A stretch of DNA of 64,000 nucleotides from a virus, in the IMG/VR virus record IMGVR_UViG_3300035698_017305, positions 68,814 to 132,813 of that record; one strand, written 5' to 3'. Below are positions 531 to 61,278 of the stretch, piece after piece; position 1 is the stretch's first letter; every line of letters starts with the position of its first letter. Made by a program: the position numbers and the translations under genes. Below the pieces are notes generated by a model that ran no database searches, was not told the DNA's origin, and saw only the letters and a list, made by a program, of their open reading frames with translations.

Positions 531-1780
531 TGGCTATATTCGATGTTACATTAGAGTATGAACCAGCGGTTAACAACGGGTCCTCAGCTCATGGTAATTC
601 CGCCCAAAAAGTAAGTGATCTTAGGGTTCGCCGTCCTCTTATGGGGATGGAGCAAACCAGAGATGAACCTAGGTACTCATACCTACAGATATTAGATTCT
701 AACAATCAGGCAGTGCCTCTTCTGGACTCCTCTTGGCCGACCTCTAGGAGTCAAGTTGGCCGGAAATATGCTAACTTTGTTATTCAAAATGTGTCCAGGT
801 CTAAGACTGAAAAGGCCCAGTTAATGCCAACGTTTGGTCAGAACTATGTCTTCTTCTTTGGGGAACAGCCCAAGACTATAACGTTCAGGGGACTCTTGAC
901 TAACACCGCAGACTTTGATTGGAAGCAAGAGTTTTGGCAGAACTATGATGAGAACTTGAGGGGTAGCCAGCTTGTATCTAAAGGGTACCTAGCCTATGTG
1001 TATTATGATGGGCTGTTGGTGGGCGGTTACTTACTAGGGTGTTCTATGTCAGAGAATGTGGCGACCCCGAATGAAGTTCCTTTTGAATTTTCGATGGTGG
1101 TGGTAACAGAGACATGGTTGACTGAAGTGCAGTCAGCTCAGACTCGGTACACACAGGTTGTGGACGCCAATATTGTGGCTAGGAAAGAAGCTTCTACCAT
1201 AACAGGATCTATCGCTAACCAGACAGGCGGGTGGACTGTTGCCGGTATCAAGGTGCCTTACATAGGGGTGTCTGATGTAATCAAGGTAGCTAACATGACC
1301 GACGCCATGATCCAGATGGGCCGGGGTGGTCGGGACTTTGATGAGGATTCTATAGGAGTAGGGGACTGGCTAAATGCTACGGCACTGTACTCTGGCACAG
1401 CTTTGGGTATTCTATTTGGGGGTAACTCCCTCCGTGGGTTCCTAGGGGAGAGTAAAGCCGCCGCCTCCTCCACCATGTTCTCAGGGGACATAGCTGCACA
1501 GTCCTACAGTCATGAGTTACTGTACGACTCATCTAGTTCTCTTGCTGATGTAGACGATAGGAGCATGGCCGCTCTCAAAAAGTTGGAAGAAGGCTTTGCT
1601 AAAGAGTATGGGTTCCTACTACTGAACAAGCTGGTGGGTATGGCCATCCACTACGCTGTTGAAGAACTAGCATCCTCTGTTATAGTTACTGTCCCTGGAG
1701 AGAACGGGCAGGCGCACAAGAAGCTAAATCAGGTGACCTACGATGACCTCCTAGGTACAACCTTCTTTAAGTTGTTTTAA
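530..1780 (+). CDS. Putative tail-tube initiator / baseplate-associated protein
   Basis: Beta-rich N-terminal half (TFGQNYVFFFGEQPKTITFRG...VPFEFSMVVV) resembles tube-fold hub-adjacent proteins; lies directly before the hub gene. Confidence 0.5.
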   Translation: MAIFDVTLEYEPAVNNGSSAHGNSAQKVSDLRVRRPLMGMEQTRDEPRYSYLQILDSNNQAVPLLDSSWPTSRSQVGRKYANFVIQNVSRSKTEKAQLMPTFGQNYVFFFGEQPKTITFRGLLTNTADFDWKQEFWQNYDENLRGSQLVSKGYLAYVYYDGLLVGGYLLGCSMSENVATPNEVPFEFSMVVVTETWLTEVQSAQTRYTQVVDANIVARKEASTITGSIANQTGGWTVAGIKVPYIGVSDVIKVANMTDAMIQMGRGGRDFDEDSIGVGDWLNATALYSGTALGILFGGNSLRGFLGESKAAASSTMFSGDIAAQSYSHELLYDSSSSLADVDDRSMAALKKLEEGFAKEYGFLLLNKLVGMAIHYAVEELASSVIVTVPGENGQAHKKLNQVTYDDLLGTTFFKLF

Positions 1781-4700
1781 TGGCTGCTAAAGAACTACGC
1801 ATACGTTTATTTGTTGAAGGGGTGGAAGTCCCCGTGGTGGCTGCAACGGTAATGGCCTCAGTAGGTCAGGCTGCGGCAGCTTCTATCCAGATAATTCCTA
1901 TGGATTCGGCTACCAACCTAGCCCCCCGTTCCAGTGTTCTTCTTTTTTACCTAGACCGTATTAAAGGGGCTACTGCGGAAGAGCCAAGCTTAGATGAGTG
2001 GAAGCTTCTGTACTACGGTGAGATCATTGGGTTTGCCTTCAGCCGTAAGCCAGATACTAGGGCTATGATTCTACAATGTATTGACACGTCTTCATATTGG
2101 GACGCGTGTAAGTTATACATGTTGGGTAAAAGCCAAGACATTGGGGGTGACTCTGGGGTTGACCGCACCCATAAGTTCTCTGGTGCCCAGTCCGTGTCCG
2201 TAAAGAACATAACCGGCACATCTAAGACGCTGATATCTAATCTGCTATCAGAAGGATCCTCACAAGGACCTAAGTCCCCAGGGTTCTGGAAGGATGGTAA
2301 ACCTATCAAAGGTGTCCTAGGTAGTATACTCAGGCTCCTTGAATCCGTCGGAGGTGTCAAGAAACATACTGCGGGGGTAAATGATTTCTTTACCTACTCT
2401 GAGATGCGCTCACGCATACTGGATCAGATAGGCTCTGACTCTGGTAAGTCCGCAGGTAAGCTGCTGAAAGAGAAGATGTTTAGGAGATACTTGAACTCTA
2501 GGATAGGTAGAGCTGGGATGATGATCAGTGTTCGAGACGTTATCAACCTGATTAACGCATACATCTTCTACAATGTAGTGCCTATTACTTCACCAGTGTA
2601 TCATCCTTCTAGTAAAGAGAAGGCCACTACCCCCTCCACTACTAAGGCCCCTGTGGCAACAAAATCTATACGGGATAAGACTGCTCGTTTCTCATCTACA
2701 CTACTTGGGTTTGTTGGCCTATATGACCTAGCCAAAAAGTCTGATGTGCCTAATGAGGCAGTGACCACTAGTATTGCCAACCATATGAAGACTAAATTAA
2801 AGCCAGCACTCATAGAGATGGCCCCATTTATAGACCTGTTGAAAGGGTCGTCCGTGGCTAACCAGACTAAGGATAACCTTGGTAACATTGAGGCTTCTAT
2901 AGATCAGATGTTGATGAACATAGATCAGATGATAGCAACTCCAACGTCAAGCCCTGAGAACACTGATCCATTTGAGTTAATGGAAACCTTAAATATGGTT
3001 AGAGAAACCTCTAATCAAATGAGGGCCGTCAGCAAGATAGTTTCGTCCAGTATATCAGTACCTATAAACCTGCCCTCCAGTGAAGCTGATAGGCTACTTA
3101 CCCAGTTGATAATTCCAGACATCTGGTTCACTGCCCCAGCGGCCTGTAATGTAGTGTTCCCTACTCAGGTATCCTCGTTGAACATGAATCGCAACTACCT
3201 ACAAGAGATCACTAGGATGCAGGTAGAGTCGGCTTACGCTTTAGAGTCTGGCGGGGTTAACACCAAGTTCTACTACGCGCCTAAGATGTATGGGATTAAG
3301 GATGGCAAGCCGGTGCCCTTCACAAAGAAGAACCTGGGGGCCACCTTCCACCACGAAAGGTTCGTAGGAGTCATCCCCGGTAGGGAGACCCTGATTAACC
3401 TTGGGGCTAAGGCTACCAACAACTCTAAGGACGATGTGCTGAACTACGCGGAACAAGTAGCGCACTTCCAATTCTTTAGAAACAGATTCAGTAGCCGCAC
3501 AATGACTGTAAGGACCCCGTTCAATCCGAATATGGTTGTGGGTATTCCTGGGGCTGTGCTATTGAGGCAAGTACCTTCTAGTATGACAGGCATATCCTCA
3601 CACACCGACACTACCTCTACTTGGTACGATCAAGAAGGCGGCATAGCCGGGTTTGTTAAGAAGCTCAGAGAGGATATGAAAGATTCTTTACTAGGGGAAC
3701 TACCTTATCATGCCGTTGGGGTCCCTATAAGTATGACCCACTCGGTAAACCAGCTAGGAGGCAGCACCGATACTAACTGGAGTAAGGTAAGGTTCCACCG
3801 TGGCATAGATGATGAGTATCTGAACCTGGAAGCAGGTATTGTAAAAGATTCATCGGCGTCCAAGTCTATACGCACAGTGTATTCTTTAGAAAGTTCTAAG
3901 TTTGCAGAAGGAGATGAGGAGAGGCAGAAGGAACTGGAGTGGTTGTATGACACCTGCCCACAGCCCCGCGCCCACGGGTCAGCTAAAGATCAGAAGGCAT
4001 TGGACTGGTTCAAATATAAATTGTACCTTGTGCCTTGGGGTGTTTTTGATGAGGAGAAGTTCACACCGGGCTCAGGCTCCCAGTTCCTAGACACTGGGTT
4101 GACCCCCAACATAGCTGGGGAGTCCCTGGAAGACCATGCGTTACAAGATGCACAAGCGTACTTCTTCAAAACAACCGAGAGTGGCGTGTCCCCGGCAAAC
4201 CCTGGGATAAAAGCCATAGGATCTAAGGGGCCAAACGGTAAAACCATTTCTGCTATTAAACCTAGTGGGGTTAATTTTGATAAGGTGACTGGTGAGTTCA
4301 AGTGGGGTAAGGTTGAGATACATGAGAAGTACTCTGTTACCACCACTGACGTTAACAAGGATGTAGCATTTGAAGACTTGGTTAGGCCCCCATGGTTCTC
4401 TGACGAGTACACCAATGGTAAAATAGGTAAGGTTTACGATGAGTTAGTAGGGTCCGACAGCATACTTGGACGCCTATGGGGTAACCTTGGGCTCCTGCAA
4501 GATGGGTCGCTGACCTCAGAAGAAACAGGGAAACCTGCTGAAATACCTGATGATGCGGCGATAGGCACTACAGAAGATGCCCTAGACGTGCTCGCTTTGT
4601 TGTATAGTGTAGTTACTGAAAACGGAGACCCAGGCGAATTTGCTGACTCTTTTGGTAAGAGGCGCATCGCCACACTGAAACAAGTCATGGGTGACTCCAC

Positions 4701-4911
4701 TGGAGACACAGAGGATGAGGTAGGATATCTCACCACCGGGCTAATGGATTCTGAGAACTTGGAAGGGTTTGAGTACCAGGACCTACCCAGGGTCACCGAG
4801 ACAGGGGCTGTAGCCAAAGTACCGAAGGAGTTAGACACTCGTAAGGAAAGAAAAGAGAGAGTGCTAACTTATCGAAATGCTTTGTTGAAGAGCCAGGGTA
4901 TATTAGGCTAG
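1780..4911 (+). CDS. Baseplate hub protein (T4 gp27 / Mu gp44-like), 1043 aa
   Basis: N-terminus RLFVEGVEVPV...ASIQIIP...LLYYGEIIGFAFSR...LQCIDTSSYW is typical of hub proteins; position in the tail operon fits. Confidence 0.6.
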   Translation: MAAKELRIRLFVEGVEVPVVAATVMASVGQAAAASIQIIPMDSATNLAPRSSVLLFYLDRIKGATAEEPSLDEWKLLYYGEIIGFAFSRKPDTRAMILQCIDTSSYWDACKLYMLGKSQDIGGDSGVDRTHKFSGAQSVSVKNITGTSKTLISNLLSEGSSQGPKSPGFWKDGKPIKGVLGSILRLLESVGGVKKHTAGVNDFFTYSEMRSRILDQIGSDSGKSAGKLLKEKMFRRYLNSRIGRAGMMISVRDVINLINAYIFYNVVPITSPVYHPSSKEKATTPSTTKAPVATKSIRDKTARFSSTLLGFVGLYDLAKKSDVPNEAVTTSIANHMKTKLKPALIEMAPFIDLLKGSSVANQTKDNLGNIEASIDQMLMNIDQMIATPTSSPENTDPFELMETLNMVRETSNQMRAVSKIVSSSISVPINLPSSEADRLLTQLIIPDIWFTAPAACNVVFPTQVSSLNMNRNYLQEITRMQVESAYALESGGVNTKFYYAPKMYGIKDGKPVPFTKKNLGATFHHERFVGVIPGRETLINLGAKATNNSKDDVLNYAEQVAHFQFFRNRFSSRTMTVRTPFNPNMVVGIPGAVLLRQVPSSMTGISSHTDTTSTWYDQEGGIAGFVKKLREDMKDSLLGELPYHAVGVPISMTHSVNQLGGSTDTNWSKVRFHRGIDDEYLNLEAGIVKDSSASKSIRTVYSLESSKFAEGDEERQKELEWLYDTCPQPRAHGSAKDQKALDWFKYKLYLVPWGVFDEEKFTPGSGSQFLDTGLTPNIAGESLEDHALQDAQAYFFKTTESGVSPANPGIKAIGSKGPNGKTISAIKPSGVNFDKVTGEFKWGKVEIHEKYSVTTTDVNKDVAFEDLVRPPWFSDEYTNGKIGKVYDELVGSDSILGRLWGNLGLLQDGSLTSEETGKPAEIPDDAAIGTTEDALDVLALLYSVVTENGDPGEFADSFGKRRIATLKQVMGDSTGDTEDEVGYLTTGLMDSENLEGFEYQDLPRVTETGAVAKVPKELDTRKERKERVLTYRNALLKSQGILG

Positions 4912-5384: not shown

Positions 5385-6158
5385 ATGACCCCAGCCACTT
5401 TTAATACTGCGGATGTAGACGCTTTCTTGGTTAAGATAGGAGCTAAGAAGGAGACGTCACAGGAACGTCAACAAGCAGACATTAAGGCGTGGGAAGAATG
5501 GAATGCCAGTGATAGAGACCCAGCTCTAGTGACCCCGTTGTTCAAAAGATTCCAGGGGTTCATCGAGAGTGAGGCAAGGAAGATGTCCAACGTTGAGATG
5601 CCTAAGAACGCTATCCGTTCTGAATTCAACAACATGTTTATGACTGCTATCAAGACCTACAAACCAGACAAGGGAGCTGCTCTAGGTACTTGGATAGGCA
5701 ACCAACTGCGAGGAGCTGGCCGGTATGTCCGGACTTACCAGAACCCTGGACGCATTGTTGAAGCTAGGCACAGACACATCACTGACTTCCAAGTAGCCCG
5801 TAGAGATTTAGAAGAACAGTACGGCAGGCCCGCCTCGGGTTTAGAACTGGCTGACAAGCTAAGCATACCCGTAAAGGAAGTGGAGAGACTGTCTAGGGAG
5901 CTGTCCCGTAAGAGCCTACCTATGAGTGGGTTTGAGGGTGAGATGTTCTCTAGGACACCCAGCAAAGAGGCTGAGAGTCTACGAATGATGATGCATGAAC
6001 TGCACGGAGAAGAGCAGGTAGTCATGGAGCATCTGTTGGGTGCTAACGGAAAAGAAAGGCTCGACCCCATAGCTATTGCTGGCAAAATGGGGGTGTCTCC
6101 TGCTAAGGTATATAGAATCAAGAAGAGACTGGTTGAAAAGGTCAGGGATTATATCTAA
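5385..6158 (+). CDS. Sigma70-family RNA polymerase sigma factor (regions 2-3-4, group 3-like)
   Basis: Region 2.3-like AIKTYKPDKGAALGTWI; region 3 helix PASGLELADKLSIP; region 4 HTH LDPIAIAGKMGVSPAKVYRIKKRL. Confidence 0.88.
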   Translation: MTPATFNTADVDAFLVKIGAKKETSQERQQADIKAWEEWNASDRDPALVTPLFKRFQGFIESEARKMSNVEMPKNAIRSEFNNMFMTAIKTYKPDKGAALGTWIGNQLRGAGRYVRTYQNPGRIVEARHRHITDFQVARRDLEEQYGRPASGLELADKLSIPVKEVERLSRELSRKSLPMSGFEGEMFSRTPSKEAESLRMMMHELHGEEQVVMEHLLGANGKERLDPIAIAGKMGVSPAKVYRIKKRLVEKVRDYI

Positions 6159-9885: not shown

Positions 9886-11130
9886 ATGGAAAATGAGCTT
9901 AGGTCTTCAGTACAAGACTTGCTCGGTCGTGTTTCTTTCCCAGATGAATTCACCCGGCTGAGAGACACCGCTGCGCTAACGCTATACCTGTCTCCAGCAT
10001 CCTTCCCTTCTGTGTCTACAATGATACGCAACGAGGCCCTCCTGTACATGGGTGCCGCCGCCGATGCAGGGTTGTCTATAATACTAGCTCTGAAAGACTC
10101 CTGGAGACCAGAGGAAGGGTATACCAATGGGGTCGCCCCGTTAGAGAAGGCGGCTCAGGACATGAAGGTAGCGGCCCGGGCCCCATCAGGGGTTAAGAGC
10201 TCACAGATAGGGTCCTTTGTTAACAAGATTGAGAAGTTCGAAACAGGTATCAAGTCATCTGTAAGGGCGGGGGCTTCAGGAAAGACCGGCATGGATGCCA
10301 GTACCTACATAGATGAACAGTACATTCTCTTCACCGATAACTTGGTTAAGGGGGTGGCTTCTTGTTGGGGGTTGGTCGGAGCTTCAACATCCTATCTATC
10401 ATTCTTACCAACGGATTTATCCAATAGGATTATGGAAGCCGCAGGTGACATGATAGGAGAGCTTGCGGAGTACCTGTCTGAGGGGGGCGGACGAGGTGAA
10501 CAGTACTCGGTACTAGCTCTGACCTCTACTATAAAGGCAGTGGTTAAAGCTACTGACTCAGAAGTGGAGGTGGACGTACCAGACTCTCACGCTGAAGCTA
10601 TACAGACACTAGCCATTCTACTTAAGGAAGTAGATAAGTCATTTGGTACTATAGATTCTGACTTTTTCAGAGGGGTGTTGTCATCATCCTTGACATCTTC
10701 AGTTCAGTCTAAAGAGAAGGCCAGGGAGATGTCTAAGAGACTCATGCGATTCTTAGTCTTCGTGACCGATGACATCAGTGATGAGGTGTTGAGGTGGGTA
10801 GGTCCTACCTCTAGCCAAGACCCCACGGTCCTGGGAGTGTTAGAAGGGTACTCTGTCACTACCAGTGATGATTCTAACCAAGTAGTGTTAGGTATCATTG
10901 ATAGATTAGAGGACAGAGGGTACGATAGAGCTGCGGATTCTCTAAGGTCAGGGGACATAGAGGTCTTTGCAACAATGACTGAGGAGGAAGCTTCCTATGC
11001 TGGGGCTGCTACTGAAAGCCTGCGTAGGATCTCCCTATTCCAGAATAACAACAACGATATAGATTGGGTTGGTAAAGAGGAGCTGCTAAGCAGGACATTT
11101 CGCGGTGGGCTCCCATCATTGGAGGAATAA
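9886..11130 (+). CDS. Hypothetical mostly helical protein (414 aa), tail region
   Basis: Long ORF abutting both neighbours; no motif recognised. Confidence 0.7.
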   Translation: MENELRSSVQDLLGRVSFPDEFTRLRDTAALTLYLSPASFPSVSTMIRNEALLYMGAAADAGLSIILALKDSWRPEEGYTNGVAPLEKAAQDMKVAARAPSGVKSSQIGSFVNKIEKFETGIKSSVRAGASGKTGMDASTYIDEQYILFTDNLVKGVASCWGLVGASTSYLSFLPTDLSNRIMEAAGDMIGELAEYLSEGGGRGEQYSVLALTSTIKAVVKATDSEVEVDVPDSHAEAIQTLAILLKEVDKSFGTIDSDFFRGVLSSSLTSSVQSKEKAREMSKRLMRFLVFVTDDISDEVLRWVGPTSSQDPTVLGVLEGYSVTTSDDSNQVVLGIIDRLEDRGYDRAADSLRSGDIEVFATMTEEEASYAGAATESLRRISLFQNNNNDIDWVGKEELLSRTFRGGLPSLEE

Positions 11131-11495
11131 TGGCGGACACTCCTGGCACAAGTTTAGAGGTGCGGATAGCGATAGGCAACGCCATAGCCTTGCTGCGTGC
11201 ACTGGATGCCAATGAGTTCATAGCCAGTACGGGCATGGCCGGTAGGTCAGGAGCGGGCAACCCAATCACTCCAGTGTCTTTAGACGACCTGTTGGAGCAG
11301 GCCATCAGTTCCATAGAGGGTGAGAGATCATTCTTCGTGACAGAATGGAAAGCGGCAGAAGAGGTGACGGCCCCATCTAAACTGGGTAGGCTGGATGAAC
11401 TTGAAGCTATGCTAACTAAGGTGTCGCAGGCAGCTAAGACCCTGGATACTGAGAGTGGCAGCTACTTACACGACCGTAACCTGGATTCATTGTAA
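11130..11495 (+). CDS. Hypothetical protein (121 aa)
   Basis: TAATG coupling on both sides. Confidence 0.65.
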   Translation: MADTPGTSLEVRIAIGNAIALLRALDANEFIASTGMAGRSGAGNPITPVSLDDLLEQAISSIEGERSFFVTEWKAAEEVTAPSKLGRLDELEAMLTKVSQAAKTLDTESGSYLHDRNLDSL

Positions 11496-52307: not shown

Positions 52308-54353
52308 ATGTCGTGGACTGTAGCACAAAACACAGGGAATGATAAATACCTCAGTAATATAGGTGCGTCCGGAGGGGGCCAACTAACACGTAAAGGTATG
52401 TACCCATCCCCATTCTTTGACATCGCCCAGACGTATCTGCCACATACCGTTAAGAGTATGTTCAAGTGGTGCAGGTACTACTACATGGTGAACCCGGTTA
52501 TCAACGCTTCTATCACTAAGCTGGCGTCGTACCCGGTTAGACCTCTCACATACAAAACAACAGATAAGCAGCTCAAGGAAATGTACCAGGAGCTGGCGGA
52601 AGTGCAGTTGAAGATCAGGTCATTCCTGGTGGATGTAGGGTTAGACTACTACACATATGGCAACGCGTTCATATCTGTAGAGTACCCATTCAAGAAGCAC
52701 TTGAAATGTAAGAAGTGCGGCAAGCTGTTCCCCATCCGGGAAGTGAAGTACAGGTTCCGTGGTATGAAGTACTACATGAACTGCCCGGACTGTAGTACCT
52801 ACGAGCAAGAATCTGACGTAGTAGATGTTAACGTGAAGTCTGTGAGAGACATCAAGTTGGTCCGCTGGAACCCAGAGGATATGAATGTTGACCACAACTA
52901 CGCCACTCTGCAAACTACATACTCATATAACATCCAGCAGTCCGTCAAAAATGACATTATGATGGGCAAAAAGAAGGTTATTGAGAATGTACCGCACTAC
53001 TACGTTGAAGCCGTCAGGAAGCAAAAGTCCATCGTGTTCAATGATAATGCGATCTACCACTTCCAACGGGGGATCATCAGCCAGAAGAATCGTGGATGGG
53101 GTATGCCAATCATGCTCCCTGTGCTCAAGAATGCGTTTTACCTCCAAATACTCCAAAAGGGGCAAGAGGCCATAGCGATGGAGCACATCGTTCCTATGAG
53201 AGCGTTGTTCCCACAGGCGGCTGATCCTTTGAGTTCCCCGGTAGCTAACGTTAACCTGTATGAGTGGCGGGAGAGAATGAACGAAGAGATCTCTAAGTGG
53301 AGGCAGGATGGTAACTACATACCTATCCTTCCGTTCCCTGTTGGGCACCAAATCATTGGGGGTACTGGCCGGGCACTGATGCTACACCAAGAGATAAAAC
53401 AGTGGCTGGAACAGATAGTCATCGGTATGTCTCTACCACTTGAATTCGTGTTTGGTGGTATGTCATACACAGGGTCTAATGTATCCATGCGGGTACTTGA
53501 GAATGACTTCATCAGATACATCGAAGATCTGCGGGGGGTACTCCGGTTCATATTCAAGAACATAGCCACCTACATGGGGTGGACTTATGTAAAGATAGAC
53601 TTCCAGCCCTTTAAGATGGCGGACGATCTACAGAGGTCAGCCTTTAAGCTCCAGATGTCACAAGCCGGAATGTTCCCGGAACGTTGGCTCATGGAGGACA
53701 TTGATGTTGACCCTGATGACGCTTACGAAGTAATGGCTCAAGAGTCTCAACGTAAGATGGATCAGCAGAAGAAACAGCAGATCGCTATGGCTGATGCTCA
53801 GGGCGAGGCCCAGGCGCGCATGATGCGTTACCAGACCAAAGCCCAGATGGAGCAGTTCCAGAATCAACAACGAGGACAGCCTGCGTCTACATCTCAGGAG
53901 TTGGGACCACCCAATGCGGGTACTACTGGGGCTGACCCCCCAGCTAGCTTGCCAGCAAATGGGCCACCGCCGCCACAGCAGCAACAACAGCAACAGCAGA
54001 ATTCTGCCATGGGGCTACCGGCTGAGACTAAGCTGTACCCAGAAAATGCTCAGAAGCAGCCAGAGAGTGGAGTTCCAAAAGGTGTGCAGTCTCCACTAGC
54101 AGGTACCAATATGGGGTCGGGTGGAGGATTCGATGTTATGTACGTAGCTAAAAAAGCAGCTCATGCTTTAATGAATATGGACCCGACTAGTCGGTACTCC
54201 AAGCTGAATGAGCTGCGTTTTTCTAACCCTCAGATACACGGACTGGTGACCCAGTTCATGCAAGAGGGGCAAGGAAGCCAAGTAGACACTATGGATATAG
54301 CTATGCCTAATCAGAAGCCTCCTCGTAGGCCCTCTAACAAAGCTGTAGGTTAA
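52308..54353 (+). CDS. Portal protein with a Zn-ribbon insertion and a Gln/Pro-rich C-terminal tail
   Basis: NPVINASITKLASYPV; DYYTYGNAFI; IYHF...GWGMPIMLPVL...GQEAI; IVIGMSLPLEFV are portal-type patterns. Confidence 0.85.
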   Translation: MSWTVAQNTGNDKYLSNIGASGGGQLTRKGMYPSPFFDIAQTYLPHTVKSMFKWCRYYYMVNPVINASITKLASYPVRPLTYKTTDKQLKEMYQELAEVQLKIRSFLVDVGLDYYTYGNAFISVEYPFKKHLKCKKCGKLFPIREVKYRFRGMKYYMNCPDCSTYEQESDVVDVNVKSVRDIKLVRWNPEDMNVDHNYATLQTTYSYNIQQSVKNDIMMGKKKVIENVPHYYVEAVRKQKSIVFNDNAIYHFQRGIISQKNRGWGMPIMLPVLKNAFYLQILQKGQEAIAMEHIVPMRALFPQAADPLSSPVANVNLYEWRERMNEEISKWRQDGNYIPILPFPVGHQIIGGTGRALMLHQEIKQWLEQIVIGMSLPLEFVFGGMSYTGSNVSMRVLENDFIRYIEDLRGVLRFIFKNIATYMGWTYVKIDFQPFKMADDLQRSAFKLQMSQAGMFPERWLMEDIDVDPDDAYEVMAQESQRKMDQQKKQQIAMADAQGEAQARMMRYQTKAQMEQFQNQQRGQPASTSQELGPPNAGTTGADPPASLPANGPPPPQQQQQQQQNSAMGLPAETKLYPENAQKQPESGVPKGVQSPLAGTNMGSGGGFDVMYVAKKAAHALMNMDPTSRYSKLNELRFSNPQIHGLVTQFMQEGQGSQVDTMDIAMPNQKPPRRPSNKAVG

Positions 54354-54935: not shown

Positions 54936-55034
54936 TCAGTTACAAAAGCCAAGAACCCCATCAACCACGCCGTCATGAATAACCGAATCATAATGCAACT
55001 CCTGTGTGTTTGGAGTCTTATGTCAGATAATACG

Positions 55035-55064
55035 TTGACAGTTAGGCCCAATTATAAGTATGAT
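55035..55064 (+). promoter_or_regulatory. Host sigma70-type promoter TTGACA-N18-TATGAT upstream of the RNA polymerase gene
   Basis: Perfect -35 hexamer and 5/6 -10 hexamer ending 38 nt before ATG 55102, in an AT-rich gap. Confidence 0.65.
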
Positions 55065-55101: not shown

Positions 55102-58100
55102 ATGCCCGAATTTAGCCCTGACAGGCAATTTGAGGCCCTCAAAGAAGGAGTCGTGGATGTCATCAAGTCCCAGCTCCCTATTGAGGGTCGCCGTCGTAAA
55201 CTTCAAGTTAACGATGTATATGTCGATGACAGACTAGACTCCGATGACCTCATATCCCAGACTGAGGCCAAAGTTGGGGGGAAAAACTGGGTAGTACCAA
55301 TCAGAGCCAAACTATCTTTGATCGACAAAGAGACTGGCAAGACGGTTGAGAAGAACGATGTAATAGTCGCCCACCTTCCTAAACCGACCAATAGACTTTC
55401 GTATATTCTCCGGGGTAAGGAGTACCAGCCCGTCACACAGTTACGCCTGAAGTCTGGTGTATATGTGAGGCGCACAGATGTTGGTGACTTGGAAGCCATG
55501 TTCAACCTTGAAAAAGGTAGAGGCTTCAATGTTATGTTTGACCCCAAGAGCCGTAAGTTCACCATGAAGTATGGTAACTCCAACATATCCTTGTACCCTA
55601 TCTTGAAAGCTCTGGGTGTGAGTGATGGGGATATCACCAAAGCTTGGGGGGATGAAGTACTAACGTCCAACCAGAAGAGCAAGCCCCTCACTGAACTCAA
55701 CCGGTTTTACAAGACTGAGACAGGTAAGCTGGCCAAGACAGAAGAGGAAGCTGCCTACCTAGTGCAGGATGTACTTGGAGCAACCAAACTACGATCTGAC
55801 ACTACAGAAGTTACCTTGGGTAAGTCCTTTGACAAAGTAAGCGGGGAGGCGCTGATAGCTGCTTCTCATAAGCTTCTGAAGGTAGCCCGGGATGCAGCGG
55901 ACACTGATGATAGAGACGCTCTTATGTTCAAAAAGGCGTTGGGGGTGGAGGATACTCTTCCTGCTGAAGTTAGATCTGCGGCATGGCGTACTAAGGGTAA
56001 GCTGAGTAACAACATTGACAACCCGAATAGTGATATCCGTAAGATCATAGGTTCCGACACATTCGATAAGACCATCACGCAGTTCTTTACACAAGGGTCG
56101 CTGTCAGAAGCCATTGAGCACGTTAACCCGCTACAGTTACTGGCGGGAGCAGCCCAGACCACTATCATGGGTAAAGGCGGTATCACTAAAGAGGATCAGA
56201 TCCGTGAACCTCAGCAGATGATCAACCCGTCCCAGTTCAGTTTCCTAGATCCGGTCCACACACCTGAATCATCCAGGACCGGCATCACTCTGTACATGCC
56301 CCTAGGCACCCATAAGGATGGGGAGGACCTGAAGAGTAGGCTGTACAATATCAAGACCGGTAAGTTTGAGGACGTGAAGGCTACTGATGCCGCGACCAAG
56401 ACAATTGTTTACGCTGACCAAGTAGAATGGAAGAAGGATGGTAAGCCCAAGGCCAAGTTCAGGCAGGTGAAGTCGAGAGCCCCTGGGGAAGAGATCAAAA
56501 TGACGGCATTCAAGGATGCTGACTACGTGGTTCCCCACGCTACGGGGCTCTTTGACTTCGTTACCAACTTGGTGCCTTTCCTGGAGTCTAACCAGGGAAA
56601 TAGAGCGTCCATGTCTACTAGACAATATGAGCAAGCTATCTCTTTGAAGGATAGGGAGGTACCTCTAGTACAAGTGGCCGCCCCGGGCGGTAAGACATTC
56701 GAAGACATAGTAGGTAAGTTTACCGCTAGGCTCTCTCCTGTAGCGGGCAAGGTAATGTCTGTAGAGAAGAATAACATCAAGGTCAAGGATGGTAAAGGTA
56801 AGGTACACATGGTATCTCTTTACTCCCATTACCCTTTGAACGATAAGTATTCCCAGCTCAACTCTGAGCCAGTGGTTAAGGCTGGGGATGTTGTGAAGAA
56901 AGGGCAGTTGGTAGCGGACTCTAACTTCACTAAGGACGGCACGTTCGCGCTAGGTGTAAACCTGGAGGCGGCGTATGTCCCTTATAAGTCCTTCAACCAT
57001 GATGATGGCATTGTTATATCCGACGCAGCATCTAAGAAACTTACCTCTGAGCATTTGTATCAGAGCAAGTACGTAGCTGACACTGAAGCTCAAGTACAGC
57101 TAGCCGAGCTGACCAAGAAGAAGCTAGGTACGAAGAAGGACCTATACCAGAATTACTTCCCCAACAGGGTCACCCCAGAGCAAGGTGGGAAACTAGACTC
57201 TGATGGAGTTATCCGTGAAGGTGAGGCTGTTGACGCAGGTGACTTACTAGTTGCCGGACTTAAGCGTAGACCTATGCGGGAAGAAGACATCATGTTGGCC
57301 AGACTGGATAAGTCTTTGGTCAGACCATTTGATGATGCTTCCGTTCGTTGGGATGAGACGTCCCAAGGTAAGGTTGTACGGGTTGTAAAAGACCGGGTTG
57401 GCGACAAGGTTAGGGGTGCCAGGGTATATGTCAGTACTGCGGAAGCCGCTAAAGTAGGTGACAAGCTAGTAGGTAGGCATGCTAACAAGGGGGTTATCAC
57501 CCTAATTCTACCTGATGCTGAGATGCCTAAAAAGAAAGACGGGACCCCCGTTGAGATCCTGATCAACGCCACAGGTATCCCTTCCCGTATGAACGTGGGG
57601 CAGGTACTGGAAACCGCTGCGTCTAAGATAGCTGAGAAAAAAGGGAAGATCTATATTACGGACAACTTCGGAGACCCAGATAGGGATAATATCCGTAGGG
57701 TTCAAGCTGATCTTAAGGCGGCAGGGGTGACAGATACAGAGCCACTATGGGATGGAAAAGATGATCCCGATAAAGATCCATCACTAGGGACGCCGTTGGC
57801 TGGTAAGCAGTACATTCTCAAGCTTCAACAAATGGTTGAGCACAAGATGGCCTCTAGATCCGGTGGGCCGGGCAGACCATATGATTACAATGACCAACCG
57901 GCTAGTGGAACCGGGGTGCAGGCCATGGATGCGCTGGCTGTGTACAGCCTCTTGTCTCATGGGGCTAAGTCAAACCTAAGAGAAATGATGACATACAAGA
58001 GCTCCCGGAACGATGATTTCTGGGACGCTCTACAACTAGGAAAACCTCTACCCATGCCCGAGACCCCGTTTACTTATGATAAGTTTGGGTCGCTACTAAA

Positions 58101-61100
58101 GGCATTGGGTATTGATATGAGGAAGAGCGGTAACGAGATATCATTCATACCCCTAACTGATAAAGAGACTCGTAAGATCTCTAATGGTGCATTGAAAGAC
58201 CCTGGCCGTATGGTGTTGGGTAAGAACCTACAGCCTGAGAAGGGTGGGCTGTTTGACCCTAAGGTCACTGGAGGCTTGGAGGGTAAGCACTGGAGTCATA
58301 TCGAACTTACGGAGAAGGTTCCAAACCCTGTGTTTGAGGGGGCTATCCGAAGAACTCTCGGCCTTACTGAAAAGGAATTCAGCGGGATAATAAACCACGA
58401 GACTACGGTCGGTGGGGAGACAGGGTTTAAGGCTCTTGAGAAGATGCTGGACTCTCTGGATGTTGACTCTGAGATTGGGTCCATTGAGAGTAAGATGGCG
58501 GATTTATCCGGGGCTAACCTAGCTAAGGCCAACATGAGGCTGAAGCAATTGAAAGCCCTTAGTACATTGAAGATGAAGCCTTCTGATGCGTACATGATGG
58601 GGACGGTCCCAGTACTGCCGCCTAACATGAGGCCGATGGTTATCACTCCTGATGGAAGGCTATCTGGGGATGACGCCAATGACCTGTACAAGTCAGTAGG
58701 TCTTACCAACATGCAGTTGGCCAAGGTAGATAAAGGGTTCCCGGATGAGTTCAAGGACCCACTAAGGGTTGAGCTGTACGATCAATTGAAAGCTCTAACT
58801 ATAACTGGAGTGGTAGACCCGACTAAGCGTAAGAAGCGCGGTATCATGGAGTTTGTGGCGGGGCAGAACCCTAAGAACAGTTTCTTCCAGGCTAAGATGA
58901 TCCGTAAGGCTCAGGATATGAGCGCCAGGGCCATCATTAAGCCTGACCCTAACCAGAGTATTGATGAGATAGGTCTGCCCAGGACGGCGGCGAGAGAAAT
59001 GTACAAGCCGTTCATAGTCAGGGAGCTGTCATTGTCTGGGTATACCCCACGAGAAGCTCAGGTTATGGTAGAGGAGGCCCATCCTAATGCTGATAAGGTT
59101 CTTGAGCAGATCGTGCAAGACAGACCCGTGATTATAAAGCGTGACCCTGCGTTGCACAGATACAGCATCATGGCTTTTAAGCCTAGGCTGCTGGACGGTA
59201 AAACTATTGATATCCACCCGTTGGTAACGAATGGGTTCAACGCTGACTTCGATGGGGACGCCATGGCAGCATATGTCCCTGTGACCCAAGAGGCCATTGA
59301 TGAAGCCAGACTGATGTTCCCAAGTAACCACTTGTTCAGTGCTAGTAGTGGGAAACTCACTACGATGCCACAGCAGGAAGCGGTACTGGGGCTGTACGAA
59401 CTATCCAAGTGGAAACCGGGCGACAATAAGGAATTTAAGTCCTTCGCCGAGGCGGTTAAAGCGGCTGATAAGGGAGGGGTAACCCTGAATGAGGTTATCC
59501 GGGTTAAGGGCAAGCCTACCACTGTGGGCCGGGTAATCCTATATAATTCACTACCCTCAGATATACGTACTGATGACATGCTGTACAAGCAGAGTTTCCG
59601 TATGGATAAAAAGACTACTGGTAAGTTCCTGGAGGGGGTGGCTAAGAAACACCCTAAGCAGTTCGACTTGGTAGCCAATGAGATCTACAGAAGAGGGGCT
59701 GACTTTGCTTACCGTATGGGGGCATCTGTTAGCTTGAACGACTTTGCTGTGGACAAGGGTCTAAGAGCCGCAGTATTCTCGGAAGCGGACACTAAGATCA
59801 ACGCATTAAGACGCAGGGGAGCCAGTCAAAAACGCATAAACAAGGAGTCATTAGAAGCCTATGGTGATGTGACTGATAAAATGGAGACCGCCCTTCATAA
59901 CAGATATGAAGGAGAATCAAACGGACTGTACTCAATGGTTAGTTCTGGTGCCAAGGGTAGCATGACTAACTTCAGGCAAATTACTGGCTCCCCTGTTCTA
60001 GTTCAAGGGTTCATGGGTAAACCTGTTCCTATTCCTATTAGAAAGTCCTACTCGGAAGGGCTAGACCTAGCTGACTACTTCACTAGTATGCACGGAGCCC
60101 GTAAGGGTACCACTGACAGGGTTAAAGGAACGTCAAGGCCCGGTGCCATGACCAAGGAACTCATCAACGCTAACTTGGACCAAGTGGTTAACAAGGATGA
60201 TTGTGGTACCACCCGTGGTATTGGTATGGATATAGAAAGTCGAGAGGTATTGGATAGGTTCTTAGCATCTGATGTCAAGATTGGGTCCAGGGTTATCCCA
60301 AAAGATTCTTTGGTAACCCCAGAGCTATTAGCTAAGCTCAAGAACGCCAAGGTCACCAGGGTCATAGTACGTAGTCCGCTTAAGTGCCAAGAAGATGAGG
60401 GTATATGTGCGAAATGCTACGGGTTAACCGAGAGGGGACACACCCCCGAGATGGGTACCAACCTGGGCGTTATCGCGGCTCAATCACTAGGTGAACCAGC
60501 TACGCAGTTGGTTATGAGAACGTTCCATACAGGATCTGCTGTTACCAGTGGGCGTAAGCTAACTGACCAGTTGACCCGTGTTTACGATGAGCTGTTGCGT
60601 ATGCCCGCGAAACTGCAAGGGTCCGCTGTACTAGCCTCCAGAGAAGGTACGGTACAGAAGATAATCCCCGATAAGGTAGCGGGTGGGTTCAACATCACTG
60701 TGGCTGGTACCAGTCACTACGTTCCAGGGGACAGACCGGTTGATAAGAAGTCCCTGTTAGGTAAGAAGGTTAAGAGGGGTGATCCACTCTCTGATGGTCC
60801 TATTAACCCTCATGAGCTGCTGAAACTGACGGATATGCCGACTGTCCGCAATTACTTGACGGATGAAGTACACAATATCTACGACAGGGAAGCGGGTACT
60901 AAGAGAAAGAACGTAGAGGTCATAATCAAGTCTTTGACAGACACTGGGGTTGTGGATGATCCAGGGGACTCAGCATCCGTTATACGGGGCGACAACATGA
61001 GACTGACCACTGCGGCCCAATTCAATGCCAAAGCCTCTGAGGATGGCCTGAAGGAGATCAAAATCAAGCCTGTACTGAAAGGGCTTAACCAGATACCGAC

Positions 61101-61278
61101 ATTTGCTAACGAGGATGTTCTGTCTAGGCTTAACTTCCAGCATCTCAAAGACACGCTGTTACAGTCAGCAGCTTTGAACTGGAAGTCTAGGATCCATGGA
61201 CCGAACCCAATTCCTGGTCTTGCTTATGGTGCCGAATTCGGAAAACCTCCGAAGGGTAGCCCCAAGACTTGGTACTAA
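55102..61278 (+). CDS. rpoBC: Multisubunit-type DNA-directed RNA polymerase with beta and beta' fused in one 2058-aa chain
   Basis: Beta motifs: LDPVHTPES, GDKLVGRHANKGVI, GIPSRMNVGQ, LREMMTYKS. Beta' motifs: VLPPNMRP, RDPALHR, catalytic NADFDGD (59239-59259), SGAKGS, HGARKG, CQEDEGICAKCYG, AQSLGEPATQLVMRTFH. Confidence 0.97.
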   Translation: MPEFSPDRQFEALKEGVVDVIKSQLPIEGRRRKLQVNDVYVDDRLDSDDLISQTEAKVGGKNWVVPIRAKLSLIDKETGKTVEKNDVIVAHLPKPTNRLSYILRGKEYQPVTQLRLKSGVYVRRTDVGDLEAMFNLEKGRGFNVMFDPKSRKFTMKYGNSNISLYPILKALGVSDGDITKAWGDEVLTSNQKSKPLTELNRFYKTETGKLAKTEEEAAYLVQDVLGATKLRSDTTEVTLGKSFDKVSGEALIAASHKLLKVARDAADTDDRDALMFKKALGVEDTLPAEVRSAAWRTKGKLSNNIDNPNSDIRKIIGSDTFDKTITQFFTQGSLSEAIEHVNPLQLLAGAAQTTIMGKGGITKEDQIREPQQMINPSQFSFLDPVHTPESSRTGITLYMPLGTHKDGEDLKSRLYNIKTGKFEDVKATDAATKTIVYADQVEWKKDGKPKAKFRQVKSRAPGEEIKMTAFKDADYVVPHATGLFDFVTNLVPFLESNQGNRASMSTRQYEQAISLKDREVPLVQVAAPGGKTFEDIVGKFTARLSPVAGKVMSVEKNNIKVKDGKGKVHMVSLYSHYPLNDKYSQLNSEPVVKAGDVVKKGQLVADSNFTKDGTFALGVNLEAAYVPYKSFNHDDGIVISDAASKKLTSEHLYQSKYVADTEAQVQLAELTKKKLGTKKDLYQNYFPNRVTPEQGGKLDSDGVIREGEAVDAGDLLVAGLKRRPMREEDIMLARLDKSLVRPFDDASVRWDETSQGKVVRVVKDRVGDKVRGARVYVSTAEAAKVGDKLVGRHANKGVITLILPDAEMPKKKDGTPVEILINATGIPSRMNVGQVLETAASKIAEKKGKIYITDNFGDPDRDNIRRVQADLKAAGVTDTEPLWDGKDDPDKDPSLGTPLAGKQYILKLQQMVEHKMASRSGGPGRPYDYNDQPASGTGVQAMDALAVYSLLSHGAKSNLREMMTYKSSRNDDFWDALQLGKPLPMPETPFTYDKFGSLLKALGIDMRKSGNEISFIPLTDKETRKISNGALKDPGRMVLGKNLQPEKGGLFDPKVTGGLEGKHWSHIELTEKVPNPVFEGAIRRTLGLTEKEFSGIINHETTVGGETGFKALEKMLDSLDVDSEIGSIESKMADLSGANLAKANMRLKQLKALSTLKMKPSDAYMMGTVPVLPPNMRPMVITPDGRLSGDDANDLYKSVGLTNMQLAKVDKGFPDEFKDPLRVELYDQLKALTITGVVDPTKRKKRGIMEFVAGQNPKNSFFQAKMIRKAQDMSARAIIKPDPNQSIDEIGLPRTAAREMYKPFIVRELSLSGYTPREAQVMVEEAHPNADKVLEQIVQDRPVIIKRDPALHRYSIMAFKPRLLDGKTIDIHPLVTNGFNADFDGDAMAAYVPVTQEAIDEARLMFPSNHLFSASSGKLTTMPQQEAVLGLYELSKWKPGDNKEFKSFAEAVKAADKGGVTLNEVIRVKGKPTTVGRVILYNSLPSDIRTDDMLYKQSFRMDKKTTGKFLEGVAKKHPKQFDLVANEIYRRGADFAYRMGASVSLNDFAVDKGLRAAVFSEADTKINALRRRGASQKRINKESLEAYGDVTDKMETALHNRYEGESNGLYSMVSSGAKGSMTNFRQITGSPVLVQGFMGKPVPIPIRKSYSEGLDLADYFTSMHGARKGTTDRVKGTSRPGAMTKELINANLDQVVNKDDCGTTRGIGMDIESREVLDRFLASDVKIGSRVIPKDSLVTPELLAKLKNAKVTRVIVRSPLKCQEDEGICAKCYGLTERGHTPEMGTNLGVIAAQSLGEPATQLVMRTFHTGSAVTSGRKLTDQLTRVYDELLRMPAKLQGSAVLASREGTVQKIIPDKVAGGFNITVAGTSHYVPGDRPVDKKSLLGKKVKRGDPLSDGPINPHELLKLTDMPTVRNYLTDEVHNIYDREAGTKRKNVEVIIKSLTDTGVVDDPGDSASVIRGDNMRLTTAAQFNAKASEDGLKEIKIKPVLKGLNQIPTFANEDVLSRLNFQHLKDTLLQSAALNWKSRIHGPNPIPGLAYGAEFGKPPKGSPKTWY

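Follow-up and report, generated by a model that had tools for sequence, protein, structure and literature searches.

Introduction

Does a sigma70-family factor encoded by a phage serve the RNA polymerase that the same phage encodes, and are the two proteins insulated from their counterparts in the host? This question is raised by a 64,000-nucleotide stretch of viral DNA (positions 68,814 to 132,813 of IMG/VR record IMGVR_UViG_3300035698_017305; hereafter the window), which forms the right-hand part of a 132.8-kb contig, estimated to be 71% complete, from an uncultured phage of ~190 kb. The window contains the gene for a one-piece beta-beta' RNA polymerase (55102–61278, plus strand) and, some 50 kb away, that for a putative sigma factor (5385–6158, plus strand). 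An earlier note on this DNA had proposed that the sigma-binding clamp helices of beta' and the phage sigma have diverged together, yielding an orthogonal pair. The analysis described below suggests that the phage probably has its own initiation machine, consisting of a single-chain core and one cognate sigma, with a rebuilt contact between sigma region 2.2 and the clamp helices and with private promoters.

Identity of the Polymerase and the Sigma Factor

The polymerase open reading frame (ORF) encodes 2058 amino acids (aa; P0002). Comparison with Pfam identified Rpb2_6 (E 1e-55) followed by Rpb1 domains 1–5, that is, beta and then beta' in the cellular order, and a phmmer search against beta' chains in the PDB gave matches down to E 1e-55. 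In the Pfam and PDB alignments, the NADFDGD motif, the lid, the clamp helices, and the bridge and trigger regions are all present, also in the cellular order. Judged by catalytic motif and domain order, the ORF is a bacterial-type beta' fused to beta. A search of the 132.8-kb contig for the alpha subunit (PF01000) gave no homologue, although its absence from the phage is not proven because the contig represents ~71% of the genome.

The lineage to which this polymerase belongs is large. Fused polymerases of 2050–2110 aa are encoded in at least 120 metagenomic clusters, many of them on contigs of 170–220 kb and several with inteins, and at least 528 matching stretches are present in IMG/VR. Cultured members are Salmonella phage Arash (OQ632216) and Vibrio phages D69, D148, and D181.

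The second protein, of 257 aa (P0003), was assigned to the sigma70 family, with domains 2, 3, and 4, on the basis of a match to phrog_351 (4e-12), a family profile, and an AlphaFold2 (AF2) model. Its scores against Pfam lie below the gathering cut-offs for both Sigma70_r3 (22.7 bits; cut-off, 25.3) and Sigma70_r2 (11.8 bits; cut-off, 24), there is no match to Sigma70_r4, and a word-based homologue search returned the query alone. An exhaustive HMMER search, by comparison, recovered 541 representative homologues at E<=1e-10. The family profile, based on an alignment of 132 homologues, matches SigA and RpoS chains from solved holoenzyme structures (E 1e-18), the match spanning profile positions 36–236 and thus regions 2–4, and aligns with residues 382–600 of Escherichia coli RpoD (66 bits). 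The AF2 model, obtained with 40 homologues, has a predicted local distance difference test (pLDDT) score of 89.9, and of the 50 PDB matches listed by Foldseek for this model every one is a sigma chain or sigma model, with a probability of 1.00. Region 1.1 is missing, and the layout is nearest to that of group 2/3 sigmas. Taken at the level of profile and predicted fold, the ORF is a true three-domain sigma70-family protein, and its sequence marks it as a very divergent member, recognisable only through the family profile.

An N-terminal extension precedes region 2 of this sigma (residues 1–52; window 5385–5540). It is conserved in the family, helical in the model, and contains near-invariant W36 and W39 in the motif DIKAWEEW.

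The Predicted Contact between Region 2.2 and the Clamp Helices

The expected docking site of sigma region 2.2 on the phage polymerase is the clamp-helix coiled-coil of beta', at residues 1190–1232 (58669–58797, plus strand), with the translation DDANDLYKSVGLTNMQLAKVDKGFPDEFKDPLRVELYDQLKAL. The phmmer alignment with PDB beta' chains places this segment opposite bacterial DLNDLYRRVINRNNRL...NEKRMLQEAVDAL, with a single gap, located in the loop. E. coli numbering was checked on rpoC from NC_000913.3; R275, E295, and A302 correspond to T1202, L1221, and Q1228 of the phage enzyme, the same replacements that had been read by eye in the earlier note. Identity with E. coli is ~35% over the 43 clamp-helix residues and ~30% over the whole polymerase, and on this measure the phage clamp helices are no more diverged from E. 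coli than the rest of the enzyme. Rather, they stand out because bacteria hold these helices nearly invariant: Francisella and actinobacterial beta' chains in the PDB alignment are nearly identical to E. coli at this site.

The replacements are shared across the lineage, as surveyed in 121 fused polymerases. Position 275 is aliphatic or Thr (V39, I26, L21, M14, T13) and never Arg, and position 295 is mostly Leu (L75, Q14, V12, M8, I6) and never Glu. Two positions have acquired a new consensus, namely 300, which is Gln in E. coli and Tyr or Trp in the lineage (Y114, W7), and 304, which is Asp in E. coli and predominantly basic in the lineage (K78, R39). Such newly conserved residues point to selection, not decay. 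Furthermore, position 298, Met in bacteria, is mostly acidic or Gln (E39, Q28, D28).

A matching change was found on the sigma side. The predicted region 2.2 helix, residues 73–94 (P-K-N-A-I-R-S-E-F-N-N-M-F-M-T-A-I-K-T-Y-K-P; 5601–5666, plus strand), is aligned to sigma70 400–421, with residues 74–91 helical in the AF2 model; the family profile places residues 75–97, NAIRSEFNNMFMTAIKTYKPDKG, opposite E. coli sigma70 402–424. This alignment bears out the claim that region 2.2 of the phage sigma is atypical: the D-L-x-Q-E signature is absent, with A-I-R-S-E in its place, and the changes relative to sigma70 are D403A, Q406S, G408F, I410N, and F419Y. Among the 132 homologues, position 403 is mostly Ala or Val (A79, V28) and in no case acidic, and position 406 is mostly small (A76, S15, G11) and in no case Gln or Glu. 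Position 407 is acidic in 95 (Glu in 91), Lys or Arg predominates at position 410 (K43, R22, N15), where bacteria have Ile, and V/I/L/M occupy position 413. These alignments of both proteins reflect strong homology rather than chance. For a control, four E. coli sigmas sharing one core were aligned. RpoD, RpoS, RpoH, and FliA all have D403, and position 406 is Gln in RpoD, RpoH, and FliA and Glu in RpoS; RpoE, for which no clean alignment was obtained, was left out.

In the sigma32 open complex, the contact is formed by D77, E81, I84, and M87 of sigma (sigma70 403, 407, 410, and 413) and by R275, R278, R281, L282, L285, I291, E295, and M298 of beta' (PMC10216364). With respect to these positions, the aligned sequences indicate that the lineage has lost one acid–base pairing, D403 and R275 both having become apolar, and may have gained another, between basic sigma 410 and E/Q/D at beta' 298; the residues taken to be in actual contact in the phage pair were assigned from helix geometry. 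The region 2.2 helix would thus dock on the clamp helices as it does in bacteria, where acidic D403, together with E407, faces basic R275, R278, and R281. The phage contact would be a rebuilt version, with 403 and 275 apolar and E407 kept.

The clamp helices could, in principle, have diverged to fit a partner other than sigma, such as a NusG-like protein or an elongation or assembly factor, with the match to sigma being coincidental. In bacteria the same helices also bind NusG and RfaH, and many ORFs near the polymerase gene have no known function. No such partner was identified, however, sigma belongs to the core gene set of the lineage, and region 2.2 has changed exactly at the residues that, in bacterial structures, face the changed beta' residues. 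This explanation therefore appears very improbable, and a contact rebuilt around sigma accounts better for the paired changes.

Is the Pair Orthogonal?

A more serious alternative is that the polymerase and sigma are cognate without being orthogonal, the interface having drifted within a tolerant coiled-coil while specificity arises from promoters, timing, or packaging. Several observations favour this alternative and weigh against an insulated pair. E407, N409, M413, and A415 are kept in the phage sigma, E407 and N409 being two of the four classical contact residues of region 2.2, and beta' N266 and Y269 are invariant in the lineage, as in bacteria; cross-binding with host partners could therefore still occur. 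Position 302 varies (G26, L23, A23, and others) and stays Gly or Ala in 49 of the 121 polymerases, so that A302Q is a peculiarity of the source phage. The clamp helices, at the 76th percentile of entropy within the lineage, are slightly below mean conservation, which rules out unusually strong conservation, and the flap tip is less conserved still; both rank among the enzyme's more variable segments. The sigma, moreover, evolves far faster than the polymerase. Variable clamp helices and flap tip together with a fast sigma fit a co-evolving interface, but also relaxed constraint. In published work, point mutants in region 2.2 only weaken binding (PMC8321222).

Covariation between the two proteins does not settle the matter in favour of orthogonality. 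In an unbiased mutual-information scan of clamp helices against region 2.2 (1419 column pairs; 25 non-redundant genome pairs, a small set with phylogeny not controlled), the best pair reached p 0.0005, no better than chance. Among 36 pre-specified contact pairs, beta' 278 and sigma 407 scored best (p 0.0017): residue 278 is basic in 10/19 cases with Glu at 407 and in 0/6 of the others; this pair is borderline after correction, again with phylogeny uncontrolled. Thus, the proposal that the two surfaces diverged together holds for the lineage as compared with bacteria; for individual residues it is at best suggested, covariation within the lineage being no more than borderline.

On the other side stand the complete lack of acidic residues at sigma 403 (0/132) and of Arg at beta' 275 (0/121), as against the retention of D403 in all four aligned E. 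coli sigmas, and the lineage-conserved Y300 and K/R304, which speak for selection. In addition, each of the substitutions R275Q, E295K, and A302D in E. coli beta' impairs holoenzyme formation, R275Q by itself being enough to impair sigma70 binding (PMC8321222). On balance, simple drift in a cognate pair is an unlikely, though serious, account. Returning to the rebuilt contact, discrimination against host sigma or host core is plausible and would probably be partial, and the further idea that host sigmas, host core, and anti-sigmas are all shut out is a reasonable hypothesis, of which the sequences of the two surfaces are suggestive only.

Two other sigma-related elements of the polymerase had been described as retained. 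The lid loop, residues 1176–1190 (58627–58671, plus strand), aligns to E. coli 250–264 in the comparison with PDB beta' chains (RPMVITPDGRL vs RPLVPLDGGRF) and contains R1177, which is invariant in the lineage; its retention is confirmed. The flap-tip-like helix REEDIMLARLDK, residues 726–737 (57277–57312, plus strand), lies in the place of the E. coli beta flap tip, so that its location stands. Its alignment to the bacterial flap-tip helix is ambiguous: the MAFFT register and the earlier ungapped one differ by one residue, and the segment is variable, with a weak lineage consensus.

Co-Occurrence of Sigma and Polymerase, and Their Detection in Arash Virion Preparations

The sigma and polymerase genes tend to travel together. 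Among 26 long IMG/VR records that contain the polymerase, 22 also carry the sigma, and the figure is 10 of 11 for records with a completeness of >=90%. A reverse search, using a degenerate DNA pattern for the sigma motif, returned 29 IMG/VR records, 23 of which were not already known. The polymerase is present in 14 of these 23, found by the sigma motif alone, and in all seven of those >=90% complete; every sigma-motif record without polymerase is a fragment. On the 132.8-kb contig (~71% of the genome), the 257-aa ORF is the sole sigma-like ORF found. One observation runs counter to a strict linkage: no sigma was detected by the family profile in IMG/VR record G011 (170.8 kb, 91% complete). 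A second, more distant sigma-like ORF was observed in two complete relatives, G025 (75302–76009) and G016 (10941–11225).

Mass spectrometry of purified Arash particles yielded 3516 spectra for the polymerase chain gp206, the highest of all proteins, 1210 for gp216, and 467 for the sigma gp10, which was covered at 100% in the virion preparation (PMC10585845). With gene lengths taken into account, these counts correspond to 2.3, 2.0, and 2.0 spectra per residue for gp206, gp216, and gp10, respectively; the polymerase chains and sigma are therefore roughly equimolar, as in a holoenzyme. The authors of that study cautioned that abundant non-structural enzymes may be carried over into the virion preparation (PMC10585845), which counts against packaging. 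In the source phage, Arash, and D69 alike, the sigma gene lies among virion-type genes. By analogy with Arash, the polymerase and sigma of the source phage would be made together with the virion genes and then packed into the particle.

These data also bear on the possibility that the phage sigma redirects the host core, as do T4 gp55 and phiEco32 gp36, with the phage polymerase using another factor or none. Action on the host core is the known rule for phage sigmas, reviews describe jumbo phages that lack an RNA polymerase as encoding sigmas for this purpose, and the known multisubunit phage polymerases, those of phiKZ and AR9, have no sigma70-type subunit. In the present lineage, however, the near-complete records found by the sigma motif all carry the fused polymerase (7/7 in the sample tested), and the phage sigma has lost D403 and Q406, whereas the four aligned host sigmas keep D403 and have Gln or Glu at 406. 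Furthermore, the Arash sigma is present in virions at about the same number of spectra per residue as the polymerase chains. Redirection of the host core is therefore improbable, and service to the phage's own polymerase is the favoured role of the sigma.

Promoter-Like Motifs

A k-mer screen of upstream regions gave the motif TGN[CT]ATAAG (TGnYATAAG), with the fuller consensus cTGaCATAAGAGTAaTGAAG. The contig has 17 copies, every one on the minus strand, and 14 of these lie in the 7.4% of the DNA that is non-coding, mostly 36–49 nt upstream of the start codons of minus-strand non-structural genes. Shuffled sequences yield ~8–9 sites per contig over both strands; what sets the motif apart is the confinement of its copies to one strand and their position between genes. 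Variants with T, A, and C as the last letter occur 6, 2, and 6 times, respectively. The sole copy in the window (55017–55025, minus strand) points away from the polymerase gene; the other 16 are on the same strand at contig positions 2,300–64,800, to the left of the window.

A similar bias was found in cultured relatives, where the motif likewise marks non-structural genes. Forward and reverse counts in Arash are 0 and 20 (17 of these being TGGTATAAG), as compared with 9 and 8 for a control and 1 and 3 for the version ending in AAT; the corresponding counts in D69 are 4 and 28, 5 and 4, and 6 and 4. No enrichment was seen for the version with final T in the source contig, Arash, or D69. In sequence, TGnYATAAG resembles an extended -10 element in which G replaces the T that sigma70 requires at -7, as expected for a sigma70-type factor with altered specificity. 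The motif would be read by the phage sigma, and, at the next infection, the packaged enzyme would act on TGnYATAAG-type promoters before non-structural genes.

A sigma70-type promoter-like site, TTGACA-18-TATGAT (55035–55064, plus strand; 11/12 matches), is located 38 nt upstream of the polymerase start codon, back to back with the minus-strand TGACATAAG site. With a near-consensus site of this kind before the polymerase gene, the host holoenzyme may also act on the phage genome, a point against complete separation from the host machinery. Sigma70-type promoters are not enriched on the contig (14 vs 20 in shuffles), and sites of this kind may represent a second promoter class or chance. Two further TTGACA-N18 sites open plus-strand blocks, at contig 46294 and 64073.

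Overall, there is good support for the claim that this polymerase is served by the sigma encoded 50 kb away, and for the description of the two proteins as a cognate pair. The support comes from two-way co-occurrence, from the single sigma-like ORF of the contig, from lineage-wide change in both contact surfaces, from the recovery of both proteins in Arash virion preparations, and from a private motif. A stronger reading is that a widespread phage lineage has a naturally orthogonal minimal system, comprising a single-chain core without alpha or omega, a sigma with a docking surface re-coded to the point of barring exchange with host sigmas or host core, and a private extended -10 promoter with G at -7, all delivered by the virion. 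This reading is possible, yet doubtful enough to be put forward only tentatively.

Neighboring Genes and Polymerase Inteins

Just upstream of the polymerase gene lies a portal protein gene (52308–54353, plus strand), the product of which is 31% identical to Arash portal gp204 (E 2e-89). Arash and D69 have the same gene order, with the portal gene followed by a small ORF and then the polymerase. Comparison of ten neighboring ORFs with PHROG gave nothing beyond a weak portal match. Near the sigma gene, a 1043-aa ORF (window 1780–4911, plus strand) is located two small genes upstream. It weakly resembles (E 5e-6) a large protein at the same place in D69, and the gene at the equivalent position in Arash encodes the virion cell-wall hydrolase gp8.

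Many homologous polymerases are 2400–3400 aa long and contain intein or homing-endonuclease domains (PF14528, PF14890, PF05204). Long polymerases of the intein type are P0012, P0018, P0021, P0048, P0058, P0061, P0067, P0075, P0085, P0089, P0098, P0101, and P0119, and a homing endonuclease is also found inside the polymerase region of D181 and D148.

Significance

Gene annotation and virion spectra for this lineage have been published in the Arash study, which contains no promoter or interface analysis (PMC10585845). What is new here is the lineage-wide interface analysis of the polymerase and sigma. Few protein contacts in bacteria are as conserved as the docking of sigma on the clamp helices, which is also a target of anti-sigma factors and inhibitors. 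A large lineage that keeps the architecture and replaces key residues offers a natural experiment on how this contact encodes specificity. If the pair discriminates against host partners, it would provide a compact two-gene orthogonal transcription module for use in bacteria, and a pair of this kind would account for the ability of these phages to maintain a private early program beside the host machinery. Arash grows on a laboratory strain of Salmonella, so that the idea can be tested now.

Comparison with Known Transcription Systems

The jumbo-phage polymerases of phiKZ and AR9 resemble the present enzyme in being phage two-barrel polymerases related to beta/beta', without alpha or omega, and with one form in the virion. 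Unlike it, they comprise four or five chains and use specificity subunits that are not of the sigma70 type (gp68 and gp226). The lineage studied here lies far nearer to bacterial beta/beta' and has retained a factor that can still be recognised as a member of the sigma70 family. A phage-encoded core that depends on a sigma70-type factor is not described in recent reviews of phage polymerases. T4 gp55, phiEco32 gp36, and the sigmas of jumbo phages without an RNA polymerase are likewise phage sigma70-family proteins with private promoters. Those sigmas must fit the host clamp helices, whereas the present family is accompanied by its own core and no longer has D403 and Q406.

The closest relatives are Arash and the Vibrio phages, with homologous polymerases (30–33% identity) and a sigma of 31% identity (E 2e-17). 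Arash and D69 share with the source phage the gene order around the polymerase, the placement of sigma among virion genes, and the strand bias of TGnYATAAG. They differ in that their enzyme is split into beta plus the N-terminal part of beta' and the C-terminal part of beta', in contrast to the single 2058-aa chain of the source phage.

As compared with the bacterial holoenzyme (E. coli beta' 260–309; sigma70 D403, Q406, E407, and N409), the same two elements are found in the same places, and N266, Y269, E407, M413, and A415 are kept in the phage. In contrast, no member of the lineage retains R275, E295, D403, or Q406, and the lineage instead has Y300 and K/R304, a mostly basic sigma 410, and a mostly acidic or Gln beta' 298. 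The system would work like a bacterial holoenzyme, assembled from members of the beta/beta' and sigma70 families that both fail the usual interface signatures.

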